A DNA stretch of 23,882 bases from a virus (lineage: Duplodnaviria > Heunggongvirae > Uroviricota > Caudoviricetes). The notes under the pieces are model-generated. The model ran no database searches and had not been told where the DNA came from. It saw only the letters and a program-made list of their open reading frames with translations. The first letter of the stretch is position 1; each line of letters starts with the position of its first letter. A program made the position numbers and the translations under genes. Below, piece by piece: positions 1 to 23,882 of this stretch. The stretch lies in IMG/VR virus record IMGVR_UViG_2585427765_000009. One strand, given 5' to 3'.

Positions 1-766
1 CCAGCTCCACTTCTGTCCGGTTTTTCCAGCTCTTACGGTGTATTACCTCCGCTTTGTAAAGGCCATTGATGCTCTCCGCCATCGCGTTGTCATACGAGTC
101 ACCAGTACTTCCTGTTGATGCCAGTAATCCGGCTTCCTTAAGCCGCTGTGTGTAGGCCAGCGATACATACTGAGAACCTTTATCACTGTGATGGACTGTG
201 CCGGACGGTTGACGGGCCCATAACGCCTGCTCCAGAGCATCCAGCACGAATGTCGTTTCCATAGACGATGAGACCCGCCACCCCACGATGTATCCGGCAA
301 ACACATCAATGATGAACGCCACATAGACGAAGCCCCGCCATGTGCTGACGTAAGTAAAATCAGCCACCCACAGCTGGTCAGGTCGTTCTGCCACGAACTG
401 ACGGTTTACGCGGTCGCCTGCGGCAACGGCTTTCCGGCTGATGGTCGTACGGACCTTTTTACCCCGGAGAACACCGGCAAGTCCCATAACCGCCATGAGA
501 CGTGCCACAGTGCATCTGGCCACTCTGATACCTTCCCGTAACAACTGACGCCAGACTTTACGCACACCGTACACCTGATGATTTTCATCGTATACGCGCT
601 GTATCTCTTTCTTCAGCCAGTCATCGCGCTGCGCACGGGCACTGCGTTTATCCGGATGATGTCGCTGTTGCTGACAGTGGTAATACGTTGACGGGGCAAT
701 ATGCAGTTCGCTGCATAGCGGTCCGACCCCGTACTGCTCACGCAGCTTATCCAGCAGTGGCATCAT
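1..766 (-). CDS. IS3-family transposase orfB (DDE catalytic domain), 3' end beyond window
   Basis: My translation from ATG at 766: MMPLLDKL...[31 protein letters not shown]...[11 protein letters not shown]; no stop before the window edge, so absent from the ORF track. Confidence 0.8.
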
Positions 767-1089
767 TTTTTCCAGAGGCGGTCGAACTCCGCCTTCGCAA
801 AATAAGCGGAAGCCTGGCGAAGGATATCGTTACTGCGGCGCAGTTCACGATTTTCACGTTCCAGCTCTTTCAGACGCTGACGTTCAGCGGTGGTGAGCCC
901 GCCATCACCGCCTCCGGTATCCCGCTCATGCTGGCGTACCCAGACACGCAGAGTCTCCGGTGTACAGCCAATCTTTGGGGCAATGGAACAAATTGCCGCC
1001 CACTGTGAGTCATATTCGCCCTGACTTTCCAGAACCATACGAATCGCTCTCTGACGGACTTCGGGGGAAAAACGAGTATTTTTAGTCAT
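763..1089 (-). CDS. IS3-family transposase orfA (helix-turn-helix / leucine zipper)
   Basis: 108 aa [22 protein letters not shown]...; SD AAGAGG upstream; stop overlaps orfB start. Confidence 0.85.
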
Positions 1090-1143
1090 CCTGTTTACCT
1101 CTTTCTCAGGGAGTTTAGTCTCCAGGATTCCCGGGGCGGTTCA

Positions 1144-3070
1144 GACTGTCTGGCAGCAGCAATCTGTCCTTCCACCTGTGCCTGTTGCTGACTGTACTGC
1201 AGCAATAACCGGGTGGCCTCATCATTACGGGGGTCGCGTGTTTTTTTCTTACCGGATGCCAGGGCTTTCTCGTAACGTTCATTTTCACGTTGTATCGCCG
1301 CATCCCTGACAGCCTGATCGGCGTACTGCATGGCATTAATACGCGCAATTTCACGCTGATGTCGTGCTGCTTCCGTTTCATTCATCCGGTTCAGTGCAGC
1401 ATTTTCAGCATTACGGCGTTTCTGTTGCTCCTGATAATTCCGCTCTGCCTGCTCTTTTGCATCCTGCAAATCCTTCTGGCGTTTTTTCTCCTGAAGCTCG
1501 TTAAGACGCTGCTGATCGTACTCAACCTGAGAAGATGATGCCGTCCAGGGGAGTCTTTTCGCCCGCACACTTTCTCCTGTAAAGCGGAAATCTGTTCATC
1601 CAGCGAGTCTTCACGACCAATATTCATGGCCGCATCCCAGAAACGACTCCATAAATCAGACAGATACTTCAGCGTACTGCCCAGCGCATTGAGGTTATTA
1701 TCAATATCCGCAGTACGCCGACCGGTTTCCTCTGCCAGTGCAGACATGGCTATCCGTGCCGCATCACTGGACCGCCCCTGTTCCCCAAGGACGCGTATCT
1801 GCTCAAGCTGAGTGGCAGTAAGAAAATGCAGCTCATTGTCCAGAGCCTTCGCGGCATTTACAGGATCATCCTTCAGCCGCTTAAACTGATTTATGGTATC
1901 GCTGACCGACTGGCCAACCGATCGCTCCATCTGTGCGGCAGCTCTCGCCACCATACCGATATCGTTTCCACGAAATGCACCACTCCCCACCACCTGAGCC
2001 AGCGCACCGGCTGCAGCATGTTGCGTAATACCATTCCCGGAAATAGCACGACTGAGCGTCCACAGCTGCCCGGCAGTGACTCCGGCATAATGCCCCGTCA
2101 GCGACAACTGGCGGTTAAATTCTTCCCCCTCCTTCTGACCATCATACCAGGCTTTACCCAGACCATAGACGGCCGCGGCAATACCGCCAATAACCCCGCC
2201 CAGCATCATGCCTTTCGGTGACATCAGTGTGTCTATCCATCCGGCACGGTTAGCCAGCGTTATCCCGGATCCCCTCAGCGCACCTAAATTGCCGCGAGCC
2301 AGTTCACCTATCAGAACGCCTATCTCCTGGCGGGCCGCTGCACTTTTCAGACCCAGCGAATGCGTGGCTTTTCCTGCCTGCTCCATTTTGCGGATATACA
2401 CTTCTGCAGCACTGCTTACCCCCAGCTGGGCTGCCTTGGCACGAAGCAACTCAGAAGAAGAAAGATTCTGGCGGGTTGCCTGCTCTTTAAGCTGACGGAT
2501 AAACGCCACTTTCTGTCGGGTAGCCTCTGCCTCAGCCTGCGTAAGAACACCGGTTTTCGCCGTAACCTCAGAAATCAGCGCCAGATAATCCTGCTGACCA
2601 ACCCCGCCACTGTTTCTGGCCTGTCGGATCTGCTGCTGAATACGCTGTAATTCCTGCAGCCCCGCACTGGCCTGTTTCACACTGTCAATCTGACGATAAA
2701 ACGCGGCAGCCGCTTTATCCTGAGCCTCCGCCAGAGCCATGGCCTGCGCCTGTTCCTCGCGCATTTTCTGGCTCAGTGCCTCCATACGCTGGCGGGTTTG
2801 CTCCACCTCGCGGGCCATGCGTTCATGAGCCTGTGCGCTCTTCTCCACCGTCTGCGCATGGACGGATGCGGCTGTTGCAGCCGAAGAAGCCGCCTGCATT
2901 GTCTGCCGGGCGGCCTGAGTCTGACGCTCCATAAAACGCTGCATACGGGCAGAAGACCGTTCTGCATCGCTGGCTGCACCATTCAGAAGGTTTTTGATAC
3001 GGGGAATTTCATTTTTAAACTCTGCCGCATCAATCCCCAAATCAATGACCAGGTTGGCTATCTGGTCCAT
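1144..3070 (-). pseudogene. H: Tail tape-measure protein (lambda H-like), frameshifted near 1545-1575 and truncated by the IS insertion at 1143/1144
   Basis: N-terminus MDQIANLVIDLGIDAAEFKNE resembles lambda H MAEPVGDLVVDLSLDAARF; SD GGAGGTG before ATG at 3070; coding continues in a second frame (ORF 1095..1568) that reads into the IS terminus. Confidence 0.8.
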
Positions 3071-3371
3071 AACGCACACCTCCGGAAATACCTTCTCCAA
3101 GATGCATCAGTTCTTCGTCCGTTCGCTCCGGTATCCCGTTCTCTTCCGGTAAAAGGCTGAAATCAGCCACCGCAGCATCACTGCTGCCGGACACCATTCT
3201 CACGATCAATGCCTTCAGCGAGGCAAACTGCGCATCCATCCACACATCACTGAAGCTCTGCATCCGGAAATAATCGCCCCACTCACCAAGCTCAGTGGCC
3301 GACATTTCCGACAGCATCCGCCGCCAGTCTGCCCGCCGGAACTCCCGGGCAAGCCGCATGACAAACTGCAT
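3042..3371 (-). CDS. T: Tail assembly chaperone T segment, expected to be made as a G-T fusion by -1 frameshift
   Basis: ORF lies in the -1 frame relative to G and overlaps the G 3' end; position between G and H as in lambda. Confidence 0.65.
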   Translation of the reverse strand: MQFVMRLAREFRRADWRRMLSEMSATELGEWGDYFRMQSFSDVWMDAQFASLKALIVRMVSGSSDAAVADFSLLPEENGIPERTDEELMHLGEGISGGVRYGPDSQPGH

Positions 3372-3379
3372 TTCCCGCG

Positions 3380-3769
3380 TCAGGACTTTTCCGGCGTCAG
3401 CGCCTCATGCTCATCATCCCCGGCATTATCAATGGCCCCCATACCGCTCAGCGACAGAACCATCTCCGCCCCCGCACCCAGGGCATCATACGACCATGTT
3501 GTAATAACGGATGCGCAAAGCGTCTCTACATCCTTAGACTGATCCGCATTCCACAGTGAGCGGGAAACCAGCCAGGCATTGATATCCATCCCCATCCGCA
3601 GAAAAGCAATCTGTCGTTCAGCCTCCGGCAGTTCTCCCTCCCCGGCATCAAACTTTGCCGTTCGCTGCTGAACAAACGCCAGATATTCAATTCTCTGCAG
3701 CCCGGACAGCTCACTGAGCACCACGGACTGTTTTTCATAATTAAACGTGCCCTGTTTCAGAAACATCAT
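3380..3769 (-). CDS. G: Tail assembly chaperone (lambda G-like)
   Basis: MFLKQGTFNYEKQSVVLSELSGLQRIEYLAF matches lambda G MFLKTESFEHNGVTVTLSELSALQRIEHLAL; SD GGTGGAGA before ATG at 3769. Confidence 0.8.
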   Translation of the reverse strand: MMFLKQGTFNYEKQSVVLSELSGLQRIEYLAFVQQRTAKFDAGEGELPEAERQIAFLRMGMDINAWLVSRSLWNADQSKDVETLCASVITTWSYDALGAGAEMVLSLSGMGAIDNAGDDEHEALTPEKS

Positions 3770-3781
3770 GTTCTCCACCTG

Positions 3782-3806
3782 CAAAAAAGCCCCGGATAAC
3801 CGGGGC
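3782..3806 (-). terminator. Predicted intrinsic terminator or attenuator just downstream of major tail gene V
   Basis: Minus-strand hairpin GCCCCGG-TTAT-CCGGGGC followed by TTTTTTG. Confidence 0.5.
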
Positions 3807-3826
3807 AAATGATGAGTATCGTCCTG

Positions 3827-4570
3827 TTAACCTGCGGCGCTGACAGCCACCGCAGCCACGGCCACAAAATCGCCGTCAGAAGTCATGCCCACAATGCTGA
3901 CACTGCCCTGCTTCACGCCTTTCACCGTGGCCACAAGCCCGTTCAGGGTCACCGTGGCAGTCTGTGGATCTGTCGAATGTACACTGATCGCTTTGTCACT
4001 GGCTCCGTCAGGTTTTACTGTAAAGGTCAGCGTGGTGGTTGCTCCCACTTTTACACTGGCAGATGCTGGTGCCACCGTCAGCCCGGTAACGCTCACTGTT
4101 TCAGTGCCTTCCTCTGCCAGATGCGGACGCCCCACACCGCTGATTTTCACTGTGCGGGTCATCACGTCTTTTGAGGCAATGGTTTTACCCAGTGAGCTCA
4201 GCCAGCCACGGAAAACATCAACAGTGCCGTTGGGATATTTGATACGAAACGCGCAGACTTCACCGGAGTCGAACAACTGAACCAGTTTTTTCTGCCCGCT
4301 GTCACCCGGACGCCAGGCCAGCGTCGCCGAAGTATCACCGACGGATTTCTGCCCCTGGGTTGTCGTTTTCCAGTCTGCATCTTCATCATCGAGATAAGTG
4401 TCATCTTCTGCATCAGCGGTCATTTCGCCAGGTTGCAGATCCTTCACCATCGCAAGACGCAGCCAGTCAGTGTCCGATAAAGGGTTCGCAAACGCATCGC
4501 CCTTGCCGGTGTACATCCAGAACGTCGTTCCCGCACCTTTCGTTTTTGCCAGTGGATTTGGTGTGGTCAT
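3827..4570 (-). CDS. V: Major tail protein (lambda V-like) with C-terminal Ig-like domain
   Basis: MTTPNPLAKTKGAGTTFWMY...LDDEDADW...NGTVDVFRGW aligns with lambda V along its length; SD AAAGGAGGTG. Confidence 0.9.
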   Translation of the reverse strand: MTTPNPLAKTKGAGTTFWMYTGKGDAFANPLSDTDWLRLAMVKDLQPGEMTADAEDDTYLDDEDADWKTTTQGQKSVGDTSATLAWRPGDSGQKKLVQLFDSGEVCAFRIKYPNGTVDVFRGWLSSLGKTIASKDVMTRTVKISGVGRPHLAEEGTETVSVTGLTVAPASASVKVGATTTLTFTVKPDGASDKAISVHSTDPQTATVTLNGLVATVKGVKQGSVSIVGMTSDGDFVAVAAVAVSAAG

Positions 4571-4581
4571 TGCCACCTCCT

Positions 4582-4983
4582 TTAATTCGTGTACGTGATC
4601 TGGTACGTGATTTCCGCCATCGCCCAGGTGGCCATCTCATTATCACGTTGATAGTTAAAACCGAGAGGGATCAGGGTGTCGATGAGTCCGGAAAGTGCCG
4701 GTATATCATTCAGAGCCGGGAAAATGGTGCTCTCCATCCACATATCCAGCTCTGAATCCGGTGCCTGTGCCCGAATGAAGACAGCAATATGCAGAACAGC
4801 CTGCCAGTCATCTTCATCCGTCATTTTTCCGGTGTACTGAGCATCACTCAGCCACACCGCCACGGCAGGCAGTTCCTGCGCATCAATAAATGCCGGAAGC
4901 CCGTCAAAAAACGTGGCGCTGTCTCCACACTGTTCCCGAAGGCGTGCCAGTACGGCCTGGCGGATTTGTGTATGTCGGTTCAT
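4582..4983 (-). CDS. U: Tail terminator protein (lambda U-like)
   Basis: TFFDGLPAFIDAQELPAVAVWL...DSELDMWMES...DIPALS matches lambda U; ATGA overlap with upstream gene. Confidence 0.9.
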   Translation of the reverse strand: MNRHTQIRQAVLARLREQCGDSATFFDGLPAFIDAQELPAVAVWLSDAQYTGKMTDEDDWQAVLHIAVFIRAQAPDSELDMWMESTIFPALNDIPALSGLIDTLIPLGFNYQRDNEMATWAMAEITYQITYTN

Positions 4984-5558
4984 CGGGTCAGCCATAACCT
5001 CAGTTGTTGTTTCAGTGCATACCCCAGCTGTTTCGGCATTTCCGCAGCAATAATGCGGTCGCGGGCATCTTCAAATGCCTGTGTCAGCGGTCCGGACAGC
5101 GGGACTTTCACCACATCAATGGGGTAACGATTTTTGCCATCAATACGCCGCATCACATGCCAGCGACCATTCGCCAGTTGCTGAATAAACGCATCCCGGA
5201 AAAGATATTTACCCACCTTCAGCACACTGCCACGGTACTGCAGTTTTCCACCACGCCGGGCCAGTCTGACCCGGGCTGTCCCCAGCTTAATAGCGGGCAG
5301 ATTGCCCCGGTTAACGCGGATCCTGGCCGTCATTTTTCCTGACGGACTGGCTTTCAACACCCGGACACGCTGACGTACCAGTTTCAGGGGGATCCCTTTC
5401 ACCTGGTTATCTCCCGCAACGGTATTCCCGGCAACCTGCCGGGTGGCGACCGAGACCGCTTTCTGTGCCACACGGTTTATCGCCCATGCGCTGGCCTGTG
5501 GCACCATACGGGTATCAAGGCTGTTCAGATTACGGATGGCATTCTCAAGCCCCTTCAT
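4980..5558 (-). CDS. Z: Minor tail / head-tail joining protein (lambda Z-like)
   Basis: 192 aa; MKGLENAIRNLNSLD...GRWHVMRRIDGKNRYPIDVVK...LGYAL matches lambda Z as recalled. Confidence 0.8.
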   Translation of the reverse strand: MKGLENAIRNLNSLDTRMVPQASAWAINRVAQKAVSVATRQVAGNTVAGDNQVKGIPLKLVRQRVRVLKASPSGKMTARIRVNRGNLPAIKLGTARVRLARRGGKLQYRGSVLKVGKYLFRDAFIQQLANGRWHVMRRIDGKNRYPIDVVKVPLSGPLTQAFEDARDRIIAAEMPKQLGYALKQQLRLWLTR

Positions 5559-5569
5559 CCCACACCTCT

Positions 5570-5845
5570 TTACTCAATAAAGATCATTGGCTTACCGTTA
5601 AAACGTTCATGCCGTGTGACCGTCCATTGTTGTCCGTCATAAACAACGCGATCCCCGCGCCGTGGGCGGTATCCCGAAGAAAACACCACCAGAGAGACCG
5701 CAGGTCCGGACAGAGCATTCAGCTCTGCCAGTGTTTCTCCCGGGATCACAGTCATATCGGCATCATTAATCGAGGCTGTCTTTCCCATCTTTCTGACCGT
5801 GATCGCATCCATACGCGCTGCCAGCCGGGAAAAGGGATCAGACAT
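5570..5845 (-). CDS. Head-tail joining protein (lambda FII-like)
   Basis: 91 aa; RRGDRVVYDGQQWTVTR resembles the lambda FII RRGDTLTIGEENFWVDR region; gene order. Confidence 0.55.
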   Translation of the reverse strand: MSDPFSRLAARMDAITVRKMGKTASINDADMTVIPGETLAELNALSGPAVSLVVFSSGYRPRRGDRVVYDGQQWTVTRHERFNGKPMIFIE

Positions 5846-6161
5846 TGAGTTTTACCGGCACTTCTTCTGCACTGGTTCCGGCATCTGCCCAGACAACCCC
5901 GACCAGCGGATCAGAGCCGCTGTTAGTCAGCTGAACTTTTCCGGACTTCAGATAAACCTTCTTACCCGTTTTCATGTCATCCGTTTTCAGCTTAGGTAGC
6001 ATAAACACACCTTCGGTCATGCCGTCGCCTGTTTCACCCTGTGGAATATCGGTCAGCGCCACCGCAAAAACATCACCCACCTGCACCAGATCTCCGCTAC
6101 TGATGGCTGCACTGGCAACAATCGCCACCGTTTTTCCTTCTTCTACAAAATTCTTTGCCAT
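5838..6161 (-). CDS. Small head-associated structural protein (DUF2190-like, tentative)
   Basis: MAKNFVEEGKT...GDLVQVGD...; SD GGAGA before ATG at 6161; directly downstream of the capsid gene. Confidence 0.5.
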   Translation of the reverse strand: MAKNFVEEGKTVAIVASAAISSGDLVQVGDVFAVALTDIPQGETGDGMTEGVFMLPKLKTDDMKTGKKVYLKSGKVQLTNSGSDPLVGVVWADAGTSAEEVPVKLNV

Positions 6162-6247: not shown

Positions 6248-8206
6248 TTACGCCGTACATTTCACCAGACCGCGGTGATCAACTGGCGCGACACCGGCGT
6301 CAATACGCACTTTCGTTGTCACGCCATCCACACTGAAGCCCTCCATCTGATCAATATATGGCGTATCCACACCGTTGAGATAAGCCACTTCAATCGTATC
6401 GGAGCCTTTTGACGCAGCCAGGTAGAAGGTGGTCTGGCTGTTATCATCAAGACGAGGCTCTGCAATAACGGTCGCAAAATCTTTCACCGGGTTAATAATA
6501 CCGGCGTTAATGTCAGCCCCCTTGACACTTGAGGAGCGAATGACCTGGTTAGCAACAGACTCCATCGCCGTCGGTACCAGTACGAACGCAGGACGAATAT
6601 TCAGATGACGCTCCCCCTCTTTCTGAACGCGCATCAACTGGCGGGCTTTATCCAGCGATGCCACGTCCATTGCAGCGCTCTCCAGTACGTTTGTATGTTT
6701 CGCTTTATCGAACAGACTTACATTATCTGTGGAGATTTTCGGGTTAGACGTCAGAATGGCATAAACCAGATCGGCAATAGTGGATTTCGCCGCACGGCCC
6801 AGCTTCATCGGGACATCGGTCAGCATATTCAGATCATCATTGATAATGGCCTGACGGGTGATACTGAACAGCTCGCCATAGGTCGCCAGTGCAATAGTGG
6901 CCTGTTTATCTCCGGTGGTGACGTATTTATATTCCGCCCCTTCACGCACCTGACGCAGAGCACTGAAGCCCCCCATACCCACACGATGGGCAATTTTAAA
7001 ATCAGACAACTGACCTTTCCGCGTCCACTGTTCATAGGTTTCAGGGGCATCTTCCCAGCCCTGCAGAATGGCTTTGTTCGCAACATCCAGCAGAATATTA
7101 CCGAAGTCAGACGTACTGTGTGTGAACGCCGCACCGACCATCTGCATCGGGTTATAACTGGAAACCCCAATACCCCGTTCAGTCAGTGACATACGGGCAT
7201 ATTCACGCAGGGTCATCCCGTTGTAGACATTATCACGTTCGGTTTTTTCAAATCCGGCACGCGCCATCAGCGCCTGGCGGATCCCGTCCCCCACAAAATT
7301 ACCGTTACCGGCATAAATATGAGCCGGGGTATTTTTATTGGATGGCGTGGACTCGCGCCCCATCTCGTTCAACAGCTTTTCGCGGGCCTGCTCCAGCGAA
7401 CATTCAGGATCGGCAAGACACTGAGCCTGCAGCGTCTGATAACGCCCGCCAAACATGGCAAACAGATCATTAATACCGTTTACACGCGCTTTTTGCTCTG
7501 CCAGTACCTGCGCACGGATGCTGTTTTCATCCACCACGGGTGCTGCTGCCTGCACTGGCGTCCGGGAGGCTTCAGGTTCATTATCCTGTACGCGTGGAGC
7601 ACTGTTGCGTGGCGGAGTAATCATGTTTCGAATGGATTCCGGCATCTTTTTAAATTCCTCTGTACGTTTTGACTGAATACATGCCATTGCCTTAACGGCT
7701 GGCGTTACCTGATCAGCAAATCCCTGTGCCAGACATTCGGCACCGGACATCCAGGTCTCATCCGCCAGCATGGCAGCAATTTCATCGGTGGTTTTCCCGG
7801 TTTTCTGTGCATAAGCGGGTAACAGAACCGCCTCAACTTTATCGAGCAGGTCGGCATAGGTGCGCATGTCCTCCGCATCACCGCCCGTAAAGCCAAATGG
7901 TTTATGAATCATCATGAAGGTGTTTTCCGGCATAATGACCGGGTTTCCCACCATCGCAATGACCGACGCCATTGACGCCGCCACACCGTCGACATAAACG
8001 GTAATGGACGCACCATGTGTTTTCAGTGCATTAAAAATGGCGATGCCTTCAAAGACATCGCCACCCGGTGAATTAATATGGAGATTAATATGGGTGATAT
8101 CGCCCAGTGCATTCAGATCACTGATAAACTGCTTCGCTGTAACACCCCAGAAACCAATCTCGTCATAAATATAAATATCCGCGTCACTCTGGTGACCAGC
8201 CTGCAT
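6248..8206 (-). CDS. Prohead protease (ClpP/S14-like) fused to HK97-fold major capsid protein
   Basis: N-terminal region has INSPGGDV and GVAASMASV ClpP-like motifs; central coiled-coil linker; C-terminal ~330 aa capsid-like; start taken at ATG 8206 (MQAGHQ) just after portal stop, not at 8467. Confidence 0.75.
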   Translation of the reverse strand: MQAGHQSDADIYIYDEIGFWGVTAKQFISDLNALGDITHINLHINSPGGDVFEGIAIFNALKTHGASITVYVDGVAASMASVIAMVGNPVIMPENTFMMIHKPFGFTGGDAEDMRTYADLLDKVEAVLLPAYAQKTGKTTDEIAAMLADETWMSGAECLAQGFADQVTPAVKAMACIQSKRTEEFKKMPESIRNMITPPRNSAPRVQDNEPEASRTPVQAAAPVVDENSIRAQVLAEQKARVNGINDLFAMFGGRYQTLQAQCLADPECSLEQAREKLLNEMGRESTPSNKNTPAHIYAGNGNFVGDGIRQALMARAGFEKTERDNVYNGMTLREYARMSLTERGIGVSSYNPMQMVGAAFTHSTSDFGNILLDVANKAILQGWEDAPETYEQWTRKGQLSDFKIAHRVGMGGFSALRQVREGAEYKYVTTGDKQATIALATYGELFSITRQAIINDDLNMLTDVPMKLGRAAKSTIADLVYAILTSNPKISTDNVSLFDKAKHTNVLESAAMDVASLDKARQLMRVQKEGERHLNIRPAFVLVPTAMESVANQVIRSSSVKGADINAGIINPVKDFATVIAEPRLDDNSQTTFYLAASKGSDTIEVAYLNGVDTPYIDQMEGFSVDGVTTKVRIDAGVAPVDHRGLVKCTA

Positions 8207-8219
8207 CCTGAACCAGGAA

Positions 8220-9728
8220 TTATTCTTCGGACTGGTCGTCGGTGTGCTGCGGCTCCTGTCGTTTCGTTGCGGCACTGCTGCCTCCTTTATCACTGGCCGG
8301 ATCGGTATCAAATACCAGATCCAGCTTGCGGTTTTCATCAATTTCGGCCTTGCGCCGACGTTTGACATCATCCGGATTACGACCACCAGCACGTACCCAG
8401 TCTGATTCTGTCGCCGCTCCACCACGAATCTGGATTTTCCAGGCCTCAGCCTCCTTAACAGGGTCAATCCACGGCATCACCGGTCCGGAATACACCGCGG
8501 TATACAGTGAAGAAAGGTCAAGATCGCGGGGTAGCCTGATAACACCGGATGCCACAGCCTGTTTCAGCCAGGCACGATACATCGGACGGGTGACGGCACC
8601 AATAAACCAGTCCTGCAGGATCAGGTAGCCATCAGTGGATTCAACCAGCTCCTGACGCTGGGCGCTGTAAGTGCCGTTATAGTTGCGCGCTGTACTGGAA
8701 AAACTCAGACGACTGCCCGCCGCCACGGCACGCAACTGACCATTACGAAAAGTTTCAAGGTTAGGATTTGGGCGATCCGACTTCACCATTCCGATTTCTT
8801 CGCCGGGTTTCAGATCATCGTAAATAATGCCTGGCTGAATGGTAAGCTCGCGTTCCTTATCCTTGCTGCCATTACCATCCGCTTCATAGCTCTGCCCGTC
8901 GCCTTTCCGGATGTACATCCCCAGAGCAGCGGCGATCCTTGCTGCAGTCAGCTCAGAATCTTCATACTCTTTCAGGGCACTGAGGCGGATCAGCACACCG
9001 GACAATAAAGACGTCCCGCGCATCTGGTGCAGACGGCGAACAAATTTAAGATGCAGCATTCGCTCTGCATCCACTTCTTTGGTTTCCATCTGCCGTCCGG
9101 ATACGGGACGGCTTTTATACACCAGATATTTTTCGGGACGCCCCCAGTCATCAACAAACACGCCCTGATTCAGCCTGTTGCTCTCATCACTGGTCATGGG
9201 AATAAAGTCCGGCTCGAGCGCCTCCAGCCAGAAATGAACACCGGCAGAAGGCGTCAGGCTGTTTATGCGCCCGGAAACCATCTGGGCAAACACCTCACCA
9301 TCGCGCAGCCAGGTACGAAGCATCAGACGTTCCAGCATCGGACGGGTAAACTGCCCGGTGACTTCCGGGCTGACAGACCATTCACTCCATCGGGTGCGAA
9401 TCTCCGCAGCCAGGTCACGGGCAATGGCCCCATTGCGTAATACCGGATGTGGCTCGACAATAATCCCGTTTTTCCCCACCACCCGTTCTTCCAGCTTGTC
9501 AAATACACCAATAACCAGATCGTGGTTGTTATCAAGGTAACGGGCCTGCTCACGTAACGACACGGCCCCGTACTGGCTTAACTGGTCGGCAGTTCGGTTC
9601 TCCCGTCGGGCTTTGTGTGTCCGCGTCGTTTTTACGGCCTCATAAGCCTGGATCACCGCACGGGAACGCAGCCTTGCCGCTTTCCATCCTGGTGAAAAAA
9701 CGCCAATCACATCATCAAGAATTGCCAT
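8220..9728 (-). CDS. Portal protein (lambda B-like)
   Basis: ~500 aa ORF between W-like gene and protease-capsid; start at MAILDD with ATGA overlap at 9728. Confidence 0.75.
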   Translation of the reverse strand: MAILDDVIGVFSPGWKAARLRSRAVIQAYEAVKTTRTHKARRENRTADQLSQYGAVSLREQARYLDNNHDLVIGVFDKLEERVVGKNGIIVEPHPVLRNGAIARDLAAEIRTRWSEWSVSPEVTGQFTRPMLERLMLRTWLRDGEVFAQMVSGRINSLTPSAGVHFWLEALEPDFIPMTSDESNRLNQGVFVDDWGRPEKYLVYKSRPVSGRQMETKEVDAERMLHLKFVRRLHQMRGTSLLSGVLIRLSALKEYEDSELTAARIAAALGMYIRKGDGQSYEADGNGSKDKERELTIQPGIIYDDLKPGEEIGMVKSDRPNPNLETFRNGQLRAVAAGSRLSFSSTARNYNGTYSAQRQELVESTDGYLILQDWFIGAVTRPMYRAWLKQAVASGVIRLPRDLDLSSLYTAVYSGPVMPWIDPVKEAEAWKIQIRGGAATESDWVRAGGRNPDDVKRRRKAEIDENRKLDLVFDTDPASDKGGSSAATKRQEPQHTDDQSEE

Positions 9729-17537: not shown

Positions 17538-18011
17538 ACAGCGAATCAGATCAAATAAAACGCACATTTGTTAACATTTACACAAAGTCTGCGTGGGATA
17601 TTCTGAAAGAATATCCATAATGTAGAGAGAATCTATTGAAGTGCATGGTGCCGGGTGCCTCCCGGTGAATTCAGTACCAGCACCTGAATCCGCGATTATC
17701 CCATATACCTACTGGCTGATTGCCCCTCCGCACAGGGGGATTCACCATGCCAGTTTCTTTTAACAAACTCCCCGCAAACCAGACAACAGTCAACCGCCTG
17801 AATTGTGAAGTATTTAAAAATTTCTCCCGCTAACTGATACCCGGCTAACAGTCTGGCGTTTTCTTTTTCAGCAACGGGAAAGCAACAACCACCACACCCG
17901 CCACCAGCACACCGTCAGCCAGCACTGACATTATCCGGCTGCTGCAATGCCATTCACAAAAACAGTAAGCAATCACTTTTTACCGTAACAGGTGATAATC
18001 CAGATATGTAT

Positions 18012-18475: not shown

Positions 18476-18552
18476 TGGCGCGCTGTACTGGATTCGAACT
18501 AGTGACCGATTGCTTAGAAGGCAATTGCTCTGTCCGGCTGAGCTAACAACGC
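18476..18552 (-). tRNA. tRNA-Arg, anticodon UCU
   Basis: 77 nt cloverleaf folded by hand: acceptor GCGTTGT/ACAGCGC, D-stem GCTC/GAGC, anticodon stem ATTGC/GCAAT, loop CTTCTAA, T-loop TTCGAAT, CCA encoded. Confidence 0.8.
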
Positions 18553-18652
18553 TGAATACCGATAATGGACCGCCATCGGGGACCCGCCCCCGCACCAACA
18601 ACCCTGTTATCGCGTCGTCTGCTCTTCCTGATAAGCTAATGGCGGTTTGTGA

Positions 18653-18728
18653 TGGTGGCCCTTGCTGGATTTGAACCAGCGACCTGGCGATTATGAGTCG
18701 CTCGCTCTCACCACTGAGCTAAAGGGCC
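18653..18728 (-). tRNA. tRNA-Ile2, anticodon CAU (lysidine type; software may call it tRNA-Met)
   Basis: 76 nt; near-identical to E. coli ileX as recalled; acceptor GGCCCTT/AAGGGCC, anticodon loop CTCATAA, T-arm GCTGG-TTCAAAT-CCAGC. Confidence 0.8.
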
Positions 18729-21864: not shown

Positions 21865-22020
21865 TTACTCCTCAGGTTCGTAAGCTGTGAAGACAGCGAC
21901 CTCCGTCTGGCCGGTTCGGATTCGTACCTCGCAGAGGTCTTTCCTCGTTACCAGTGCCGTCACTATGACGGTTAAACAGATGACGATCAGGGCGATTAAC
22001 ATCGCCTTTTGCTGCTTCAT
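21865..22020 (-). CDS. hok: Hok/Gef-family type I toxin (HokD/RelF-like)
   Basis: MKQQKAMLIALIVICLTVIVTALVTRKDLCEVRIRTGQTEVAVFTAYEPEE, near-identical to Gef/HokC as recalled; SD AAGGAGAAG; ORF-track start at 22077 is an in-frame upstream ATG. Confidence 0.9.
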   Translation of the reverse strand: MKQQKAMLIALIVICLTVIVTALVTRKDLCEVRIRTGQTEVAVFTAYEPEE

Positions 22021-22278
22021 AGCCTGCTTCTCCTTGCCTTTCGGCACGTAAGAGGCTAACCTAGATTTGCCGTTCATAGATTGAGCCTCAGATTAATGTT
22101 AAACGTCTTGCAGGACGCGTAATGTTAACTGGGGCTTTTCTCTATCTGCCTTTGGTGTTCATGCCCGAGGCAGATAGCCTCAAGCACCCGCAGTCATTCT
22201 ACTTAACTAAGATTTCCCCGCAAACCGTTTTTGTCCAGCACAATAAATATCCAACTAAACCAATGGAGTTCGCTGTAT

Positions 22279-22671: not shown

Positions 22672-23484
22672 CTAGACACTTCCGAGCCGCTGATAATATT
22701 GTTTTTCGTATTCAGTTGGTGGCATATGATCACTCGAACCATGCCGACGCTTACTGTTATAAAACATTTCGATGTAATCAAAAATATCACCGCGAGCTTC
22801 TTCTCGCGTTCCGTAGATCTTTTTCTTTATCCGTTCACGTTTCAGTAACTGGAAAAAACTTTCTGCGACTGCGTTGTCATGACAGTTACCGCGACGGCTC
22901 ATACTGCCCTCCAGCCCGTGTGATTTCAGGAACGACTGCCACTCATAGCTTGTGTACTGACTGCCTTGATCAGAATGAACCAGCACCTGCTTTTGAGGAT
23001 TACGTCGCCACACGGCCATCAGAAGTGCATTCAGGACAATATCCTTTGTCATCCGGGGCTGCATTGACCAGCCAATAACTTTGCGCGAGAACAGGTCAAC
23101 AACCACAGCCAGATACAGCCAGCCTTCGTGAGTCCGGATGTAGGTGATGTCCGTTACCCAACGCTCATCCGGTGCTTCCGGGTTGAACTGCCGCTGGAGC
23201 CTGTTGGGCGTCACGATGCTGGTTTCACCCTTACGTGCCCGTGGGCTACGGTACCCGACCTGAGCCCTTATCCCGGCACGCTTCATCAGTCGCCAGACAC
23301 GGTTAACTCCGCACTGTTGTCCGGTATCCCGCAGGTCGAGGTGGATCTTGCGATAACCATAAACGCAACCCGACTCCAGCCAGAACTGCTTTATCAGCCC
23401 CGTCAGTCTCAGGTCAGCATGATGCCGCCGTGAATCCGGCTGCTGAAGCCAGGCGTAAAAACCACTCGGATGCACATCCAGCAC
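22672..23484 (-). CDS. IS3-family transposase orfB (DDE domain); true N-terminus supplied by frameshift fusion with orfA
   Basis: WVTDITYIRTHEGWLYLAVVVDLFSRKVIGW...HSDQGSQYTS...NAVAESFF motifs. Confidence 0.85.
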   Translation of the reverse strand: MLDVHPSGFYAWLQQPDSRRHHADLRLTGLIKQFWLESGCVYGYRKIHLDLRDTGQQCGVNRVWRLMKRAGIRAQVGYRSPRARKGETSIVTPNRLQRQFNPEAPDERWVTDITYIRTHEGWLYLAVVVDLFSRKVIGWSMQPRMTKDIVLNALLMAVWRRNPQKQVLVHSDQGSQYTSYEWQSFLKSHGLEGSMSRRGNCHDNAVAESFFQLLKRERIKKKIYGTREEARGDIFDYIEMFYNSKRRHGSSDHMPPTEYEKQYYQRLGSV

Positions 23485-23540
23485 CCGACAAAGCAGTCGG
23501 ACAGGCCAGCAATGGGTGTTGTCACGGATAAAGGCGTACC

Positions 23541-23819
23541 TCAGTCGGACAGCTTTGCGAAGTACGCCGCGGCTTTTTTTAATATGTCCCGTTCGTCGGT
23601 AACCCGCTTCAGCTCTTTCTGGAGGCGTCGGATCTCAGCCTGAGCGTCTGACTGGACTTTATTGGTTGAGGAATCCGGGCCATATGCCTTTATCCAGGCA
23701 TAAAGACTGTGGGTGGTGATACCGAGACGTGTTGCCACGCTGGAAACAGAATGGCCGCGATCAACAACCTGTTTTACCGCTTCAATTTTAAACTCTTCGG
23801 GATAACGCTTACCGCTCAT
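23541..23819 (-). CDS. IS3-family transposase orfA
   Basis: HTH region plus leucine-zipper-like C-terminus ending AAAYFAK; SD GAGAGGTG; ORF-track GTG at 23825 or ATG at 23819. Confidence 0.85.
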   Translation of the reverse strand: MSGKRYPEEFKIEAVKQVVDRGHSVSSVATRLGITTHSLYAWIKAYGPDSSTNKVQSDAQAEIRRLQKELKRVTDERDILKKAAAYFAKLSD

Positions 23820-23882
23820 GGGCACCTCTCTTTAAGTCATCTTAAATGACTCTGAGGTGTCTGTTAAACCCGTGGCGATTCA

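Follow-up and report, generated by a model that had tools for sequence, protein, structure and literature searches.

A one-base deletion and an IS629/IS1203-group insertion in the tape-measure gene of a cryptic prophage at the Qin site

Genetic work on phage lambda has established that tail assembly cannot nucleate without the tape-measure protein, which also sets the length of the tail. In lambda-like Escherichia coli siphophages such as mEp460, cdtI and vB_EcoS-569R4, its gene, H, is found in the order Z, U, V, G, T, H, M, L, K, I, J and encodes the domains TMP_2, TMP_4 and Tape_meas_lam_C. At the prophage site that concerns us here, E. coli K-12 carries Qin, a cryptic prophage from which the head and tail genes are gone. 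The insertion sequence IS629 is biased towards prophages: Rump et al. 2011 (PMC3271280), who reported no specific hot spot, counted 62% of the O157:H7 copies in prophages or prophage-like elements. On IS629 in tape-measure genes, we found nothing specific in the literature, and one incidental paper.

Here we describe a lambda-H-type gene, residing in a cryptic prophage at the Qin site, that in all likelihood became a pseudogene through two independent mutations, each private to its lineage. The window analysed, 23,882 bp long, coincides with the whole of draft contig JOSO01000043.1 (assembly GCA_000713745.1). Both of its ends lie at IS elements, and it stops inside one of them: the element is multicopy, so the draft contig breaks off within it. 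The genome that carries the locus further is that of E. coli E203449 (NZ_CM128603.1), a commensal isolate (phylogroup A, O8:H10, ST5386) from a Malian control child of the GEMS study, whose complete chromosome was assembled with Unicycler from new Illumina HiSeq and Nanopore (ONT) reads at a depth of ~348x. The draft contig and this chromosome align collinearly along the full 23,882 bases, with 2 mismatches at window positions 2602 and 9733, which are either true strain differences or an error in one of the assemblies. From the differing accessions and dates, together with these two SNPs, we infer that the draft contig and E203449 probably stem from separate isolates or libraries.

The gene appears in the list of open reading frames as a large minus-strand frame with its ATG at 3070, beginning MDQIANLVIDLG..., and is preceded by other tail genes:

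3380..3766, minus strand: gene of the tail assembly chaperone G (Pfam Phage_TAC_2; gpG in PGAP)
3042..3371, minus strand: gene of the tail assembly protein T (Pfam Phage_tail_T and PGAP), directly 5' of H and overlapping it
1144..3070, minus strand: 5' portion of H, equal to nt 1-1928 of a 3066-nt gene but one base short (alignment, Pfam and PGAP)

The order of transcription on the minus strand of window 1-4600 is thus major tail protein V, chaperones G and T, then H. Within the H fragment, Pfam recognizes TMP_2 ('prophage tail length tape measure') with E=1.6e-49. The 1.96-kb 5' fragment is 98-99.6% identical in DNA to H of lambda-like E. coli siphophages (vB_EcoS-569R4, Ayreon, Tritos, mEp460, cdtI). 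The full fragment is matched by 17 phage genomes; all 17 have an annotated H, and nearly all of them align one base longer than the window. Two features of a lambda-type gpH are present: the tape-measure domains, with TMP_2 in the window and TMP_4 and Tape_meas_lam_C beyond the IS in E203449, and the gene position, with V, G and T upstream in the window and M, L, K, I and J downstream of the IS in E203449. The third, an uninterrupted frame of about 1021 codons, is absent: it is broken by a deletion at nt 1505 and by an IS after nt 1928, and a full-length protein of 1021 amino acids is therefore impossible. To judge by its sequence, the gene is a pseudogene of the lambda-type tape-measure family, and not a functional member of it.

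The first lesion emerged when window 3070-1144 (minus strand) was aligned to the intact 3066-nt H of Escherichia phage vB_EcoS-569R4. The alignment holds 5 substitutions and a single indel, a gap of 1 nt at H nt 1505. Its consequences for the reading frame are laid out as follows:

1566..1567, minus strand: place of the missing base, H nt 1505, which is the C of the Ser502 codon TCG and would fall between these two letters
1391..1393, minus strand: premature stop in the shifted frame, giving a product of 559 aa, of which 501 are native and 58 out of frame
1095..1568, minus strand: frame-B ORF, made of native H codons 503-642 and 15 codons from the end of the IS (16 protein letters not shown)

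Around the gap, the intact gene has GAGAAAGTGTCGCGGGCG where the window has GAGAAAGTGTGCGGGCG; split into codons, GAG AAA GTG TCG CGG GCG becomes GAG AAA GTG TGC GGG CGA. Within window 1500-1620, the deletion form is recognizable as GTGTGCGGG and the intact form as GTGTCGCGGG. The missing base lies outside any homopolymer (GTGT-C-GCGGG), and the placement of the gap is unambiguous. Past ...ISALQEKV, the native protein continues ...ISALQEKVSRAKRLPWTASSSQVEYDQQ, whereas frame A of the window reads ...ISALQEKVCGRKDSPGRHH...; the native sequence is taken up in frame B (RAKRLPWTASSSQ... / RAKRLPWTASSSQVEYDQQRLNELQEKK...), as the ORF 1095-1568. This agrees with the sequence-only reading, which had placed a change of frame between about 1545 and 1575, had judged frame A implausible after that same motif, and had suggested that alignment to an intact H would locate the indel. 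The 559-aa product is present as a called gene on contig JOSO01000043.1, and the gene caller sees the frame-B region as an ORF of 96 aa. A Pfam search with the 58-aa out-of-frame tail and with the frame-B ORF returned no family match.

The frame-B ORF does extend 46 nt into the IS (...AAARQ, then 16 protein letters not shown), as had been noticed before. Its description as an H-IS read-through holds only in part: the frameshift lies upstream of the IS, and ribosomes that start at H therefore stop at 1391-1393 and never reach the element. Out of frame with the start of H, the read-through is best regarded as a purely formal ORF, a by-product and not a gene.

We considered that the frameshift might be an error of sequencing or assembly, with the IS insertion alone being real. 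An 81-nt probe centred on the deletion found its target in 1789 complete E. coli genomes, and only one of these, E203449, carries the deletion allele; the other matches are all below 99% identity and, among the matches listed, all align with one extra base. Neither the deletion allele nor the H-IS junction has any other carrier among 241 million metagenome records. An artefact would show the same rarity. Against it, the missing base is not in a homopolymer, and the same deletion is found in the 2014-era draft JOSO01000043.1 and in the later hybrid assembly of E203449 (~348x), two assemblies that differ elsewhere at 2 positions. That a sequencing error produced the identical deletion, outside a homopolymer, in two assemblies made separately is very unlikely. 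We thus reject the homopolymer error against which the sequence-only reading had advised a check, on the grounds of both the GTGT-C-GCGGG context and the recurrence in a separately sequenced hybrid genome.

The second lesion is the IS itself, of which the window holds the following parts:

1144..1146, minus strand: target triplet GTC, H nt 1926-1928, whose second copy lies past the IS in the complete genome
1..1143, minus strand: left part of the IS, 1143 bp of a 1310-bp IS629/IS1203-group element of the IS3 family, cut by the contig end
763-1089, minus strand: orfA of the IS, with HTH_Tnp_1 (Pfam)
692-808, minus strand: ALIL frameshift pseudoknot (Rfam ALIL, 120 bits)
After orfA and truncated at the contig end, minus strand: most of orfB, with HTH_21 and rve

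The left end of the IS, TGAACCGCCCCGGGAATCC... / TGAACCGCCCCGGGAATCCTGGAGAC, starts at window 1143, reading downwards and including the terminal repeat, exactly at the 1143/1144 boundary proposed earlier. In E203449 the element is complete: it measures 1310 bp, is inserted after H nt 1928 (codon 643) between perfect GTC repeats, and has the junctions ...CAGACAGTC/TGAACC...GGTTCA/GTCAGCAGG. The two parts of H in E203449 rejoin exactly to the intact gene sequence. Three hallmarks of the IS3/IS629 type are found: a length of ~1.3 kb with inverted repeats TGA...TCA (TGAACCGCCCCGGG...CCCGGGGCGGTTCA in the 1310-bp copy of E203449); orfA (HTH) and orfB (DDE/rve) with -1 frameshifting, attested by ALIL and by the 'programmed frameshift' of PGAP; and a 3-bp target duplication, GTC on both sides in E203449, with the left copy alone inside the window. 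The element differs at 51-54 of 1310 nt (~96% identity) from the O157:H7 copies, which PGAP names IS1203 family; copies of at least 99% identity occur in 134 E. coli records. Its 1143 nt in the window match another copy in E203449 at 100%, which fits a recent transposition from a resident copy.

That the H-IS junction could be a chimera of assembly, with H in fact continuous, is hardly credible: in its favour, the window is a draft contig ending in a multicopy IS, but the long-read-scaffolded chromosome has the full 1310-bp element with its perfect 3-bp GTC duplication, and the H halves of this complete chromosome rejoin exactly to the intact sequence. E203449 shares the deletion, the insertion and the duplication with the window; the distal part of H, which had been expected to run on uninterrupted if the earlier interpretation were wrong, lies behind the IS there. 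The double inactivation of H is thereby confirmed, the frameshift by the vB_EcoS-569R4 alignment and the insertion by the E203449 junctions.

Equally far-fetched is a programmed recoding site, or an N-terminal fragment of H retained for a new function, in place of plain decay: PGAP flags no pseudogenes in the rest of the late operon and the region is not heavily degraded, but the site (AAA GTG TGC GGG) has no slippery heptamer of the X XXY YYZ kind, the allele is not conserved (1 of 1789 genomes), every phage genome matching the whole H fragment has an annotated tape-measure gene, and the 58-aa tail and the frame-B ORF have no Pfam match. A programmed frameshift is rejected on the grounds of the missing heptamer and the rarity of the allele. 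Taken together, error, chimera and recoding or exaptation retain only a small share of the probability, which leaves the double inactivation of H as the best explanation.

In E203449, the sequence beyond the IS holds the last 379 codons of H, followed by M, L, K (C40 peptidase), I, J, lom, the tail fibre gene (stf) and tfaQ, and then by a 5'-truncated ydfJ. The absence of tail-tip genes from the window, correctly remarked on in the sequence-only reading, is thus trivial, the window being a whole contig that ends in the IS; the distal H and the genes M, L, K, I and J, whose presence was to be looked for, are found directly past it, together with lom, stf and tfa. The same reading held functional tails to be unlikely unless the distal genes lay beyond the IS. 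The prophage is indeed defective, but the exception does not apply: the distal genes exist but would not rescue tail formation, H being doubly broken. PGAP treats the H of E203449 as two pseudogenes on either side of an IS3-family transposase: the 5' one is labelled 'phage tail length tape measure family protein; frameshifted; incomplete', the 3' one 'incomplete'.

The prophage occupies the Qin site, from rspB to the truncated ydfJ'. At the far end of the window, the order is the stop of rspB, a second IS3-family element, hokD/sok, DUF968, RusA and a Q-type antiterminator; two tRNA genes, lysis genes, terminase, portal, a protease-capsid fusion and tail genes follow. The second element is unrelated to the first:

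22672-23825: second IS3-family element, with orfA (MSGKRYPEEFKIEAVKQ...) and an rve-type orfB

No integrase, excisionase, repressor/immunity or replication genes are present in the prophage. It is therefore a cryptic remnant, incapable of autonomous excision or replication and defective whatever the state of H. The second element stands directly between the rspB stop and hokD, on the side where a Qin-type prophage is expected to have its integrase and dicB/dicA/relBE genes, an arrangement that points to loss of the entire early region in an IS-associated deletion.

Several small features of the remnant deserve mention. At its edge, window 21865-22189 holds the hokD toxin ORF and a full-length sok antisense RNA (Rfam RF01794, 110 bits). 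Among the features at 18476-18728 and 17587-17779 are two phage-borne tRNA genes, downstream of the Q antiterminator, and a full-length match to the STnc100 sRNA family (113 bits). One tRNA is tRNA-Arg (UCU); the other, with a CAT anticodon, is assigned to Met by ARAGORN and to Ile by PGAP.

We propose the following course of decay. A deletion of 1 nt at codon 502 shifts the frame of H and ends translation 58 codons later. A resident IS629/IS1203-group element has transposed into codon 643, duplicating the 3-bp target GTC, and now cuts H off from its final 379 codons, among them those for the Tape_meas_lam_C domain. Once either lesion of H, or the loss of the early region, was present, the next lesion would have been selectively neutral. 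With a tape-measure protein truncated at residue 501 and its C-terminal domains gone, lambda genetics predicts that no tails are made: in the absence of an intact tape measure there would be neither tail initiator nor tube, and presumably no tailed particles, even with the late operon transcribed. Since the element was already unable to replicate or excise, selection on its late genes is probably relaxed, and they would be decaying.

The double disruption of H is ordinary prophage decay, already recorded by PGAP in a near-identical public genome. Its significance is mostly one of annotation: the Qin-site prophage should be read as a decaying remnant, and the end of the window in an IS as a break of the draft assembly at a repeat. 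Insertions of the IS629 family in prophages are commonplace, and the sole mildly unexpected result is an insertion at the same site in another strain.

In a search for the H-IS junction among 5426 complete genomes, only O157:H7 F8798 (NZ_CP038351.1, extracted locus 7959-9268) was found besides E203449. There, an IS629/IS1203 copy follows nt 1928 of H exactly as in the window, with the same orientation and GTC duplication; its sequence differs from the window's element at 52 of 1310 nt. The flanks of the two insertions diverge within 40-90 bp of the IS, and each IS is identical or near-identical to resident copies of its own genome. We also considered an ancestral insertion shared by both strains, followed by gene conversion, and find it less likely, given the junction in F8798 only, the differing flanks and the match to resident copies. 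The insertions of the window and of F8798, whose hosts are unrelated, are probably independent events at one site. By our estimate, the chance that a few independent random insertions in a 3066-bp gene share position and orientation is ~1/1000. Tentatively, H nt 1928 (GTC in GCCAGACA-GTC-AGCAGGC) might be a preferred insertion site for transposases of the IS629 group, although we rather doubt it; if true, it would contradict the published view of IS629 as having no hot spot (PMC3271280).

Other interruptions of H by IS629/IS1203 are seen in O157:H7-type strains. In strain 319 (extracted locus 4777-6086), the element lies at nt 2246, with target duplication ATA; nine other listed O157:H7-type strains share nt 2246, judged from equal alignment spans. 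In O157:H7 F6667 (extracted locus 4068-5377), it lies at nt 1537, with target duplication CAT. The copies in 319, F6667 and F8798 are all co-oriented with H, which is thus a recurrent target of IS629. Such recurrent hits are relevant to target choice by IS3-family transposases and to strain typing with IS629 sites as markers. A different tape-measure gene is involved at a second E203449 copy of the element, identical over the 1143 nt (NZ_CM128603.1 1729366-1731548): it abuts a truncated tape-measure gene in an unrelated prophage remnant of myovirus type (baseplate genes, stfP), in which a deletion has apparently taken the gene's N-terminal portion and its upstream neighbours.

Compared with the described systems, the locus departs from each in a definite way. 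Like the IS629/IS1203 of O157:H7, its element has 1310 bp, TGAACCGCCCCGG... ends, a 3-bp duplication and orfA/orfB with the ALIL pseudoknot; it is, however, an isoform ~4% divergent, labelled by PGAP only as 'IS3 family transposase', and its host is a phylogroup A O8:H10 commensal instead of the O157:H7 of the comparison copies. Like K-12 Qin, the prophage lies between rspB and a truncated ydfJ and has hokD/sok, a Q-type antiterminator, the essD/rrrQ lysis genes and tfaQ. Unlike K-12 Qin, it keeps a full late operon, from terminase to tail fibre, and lacks the int-dicB-dicA-relBE side, with an IS3-family element beside rspB instead. Finally, H as pieced together from the window and E203449 has the domain order and the gene neighbourhood of the mEp460/cdtI/vB_EcoS-569R4 group; in contrast to the H of these phages, it is one base short at codon 502 and interrupted by a 1310-bp IS in codon 643.
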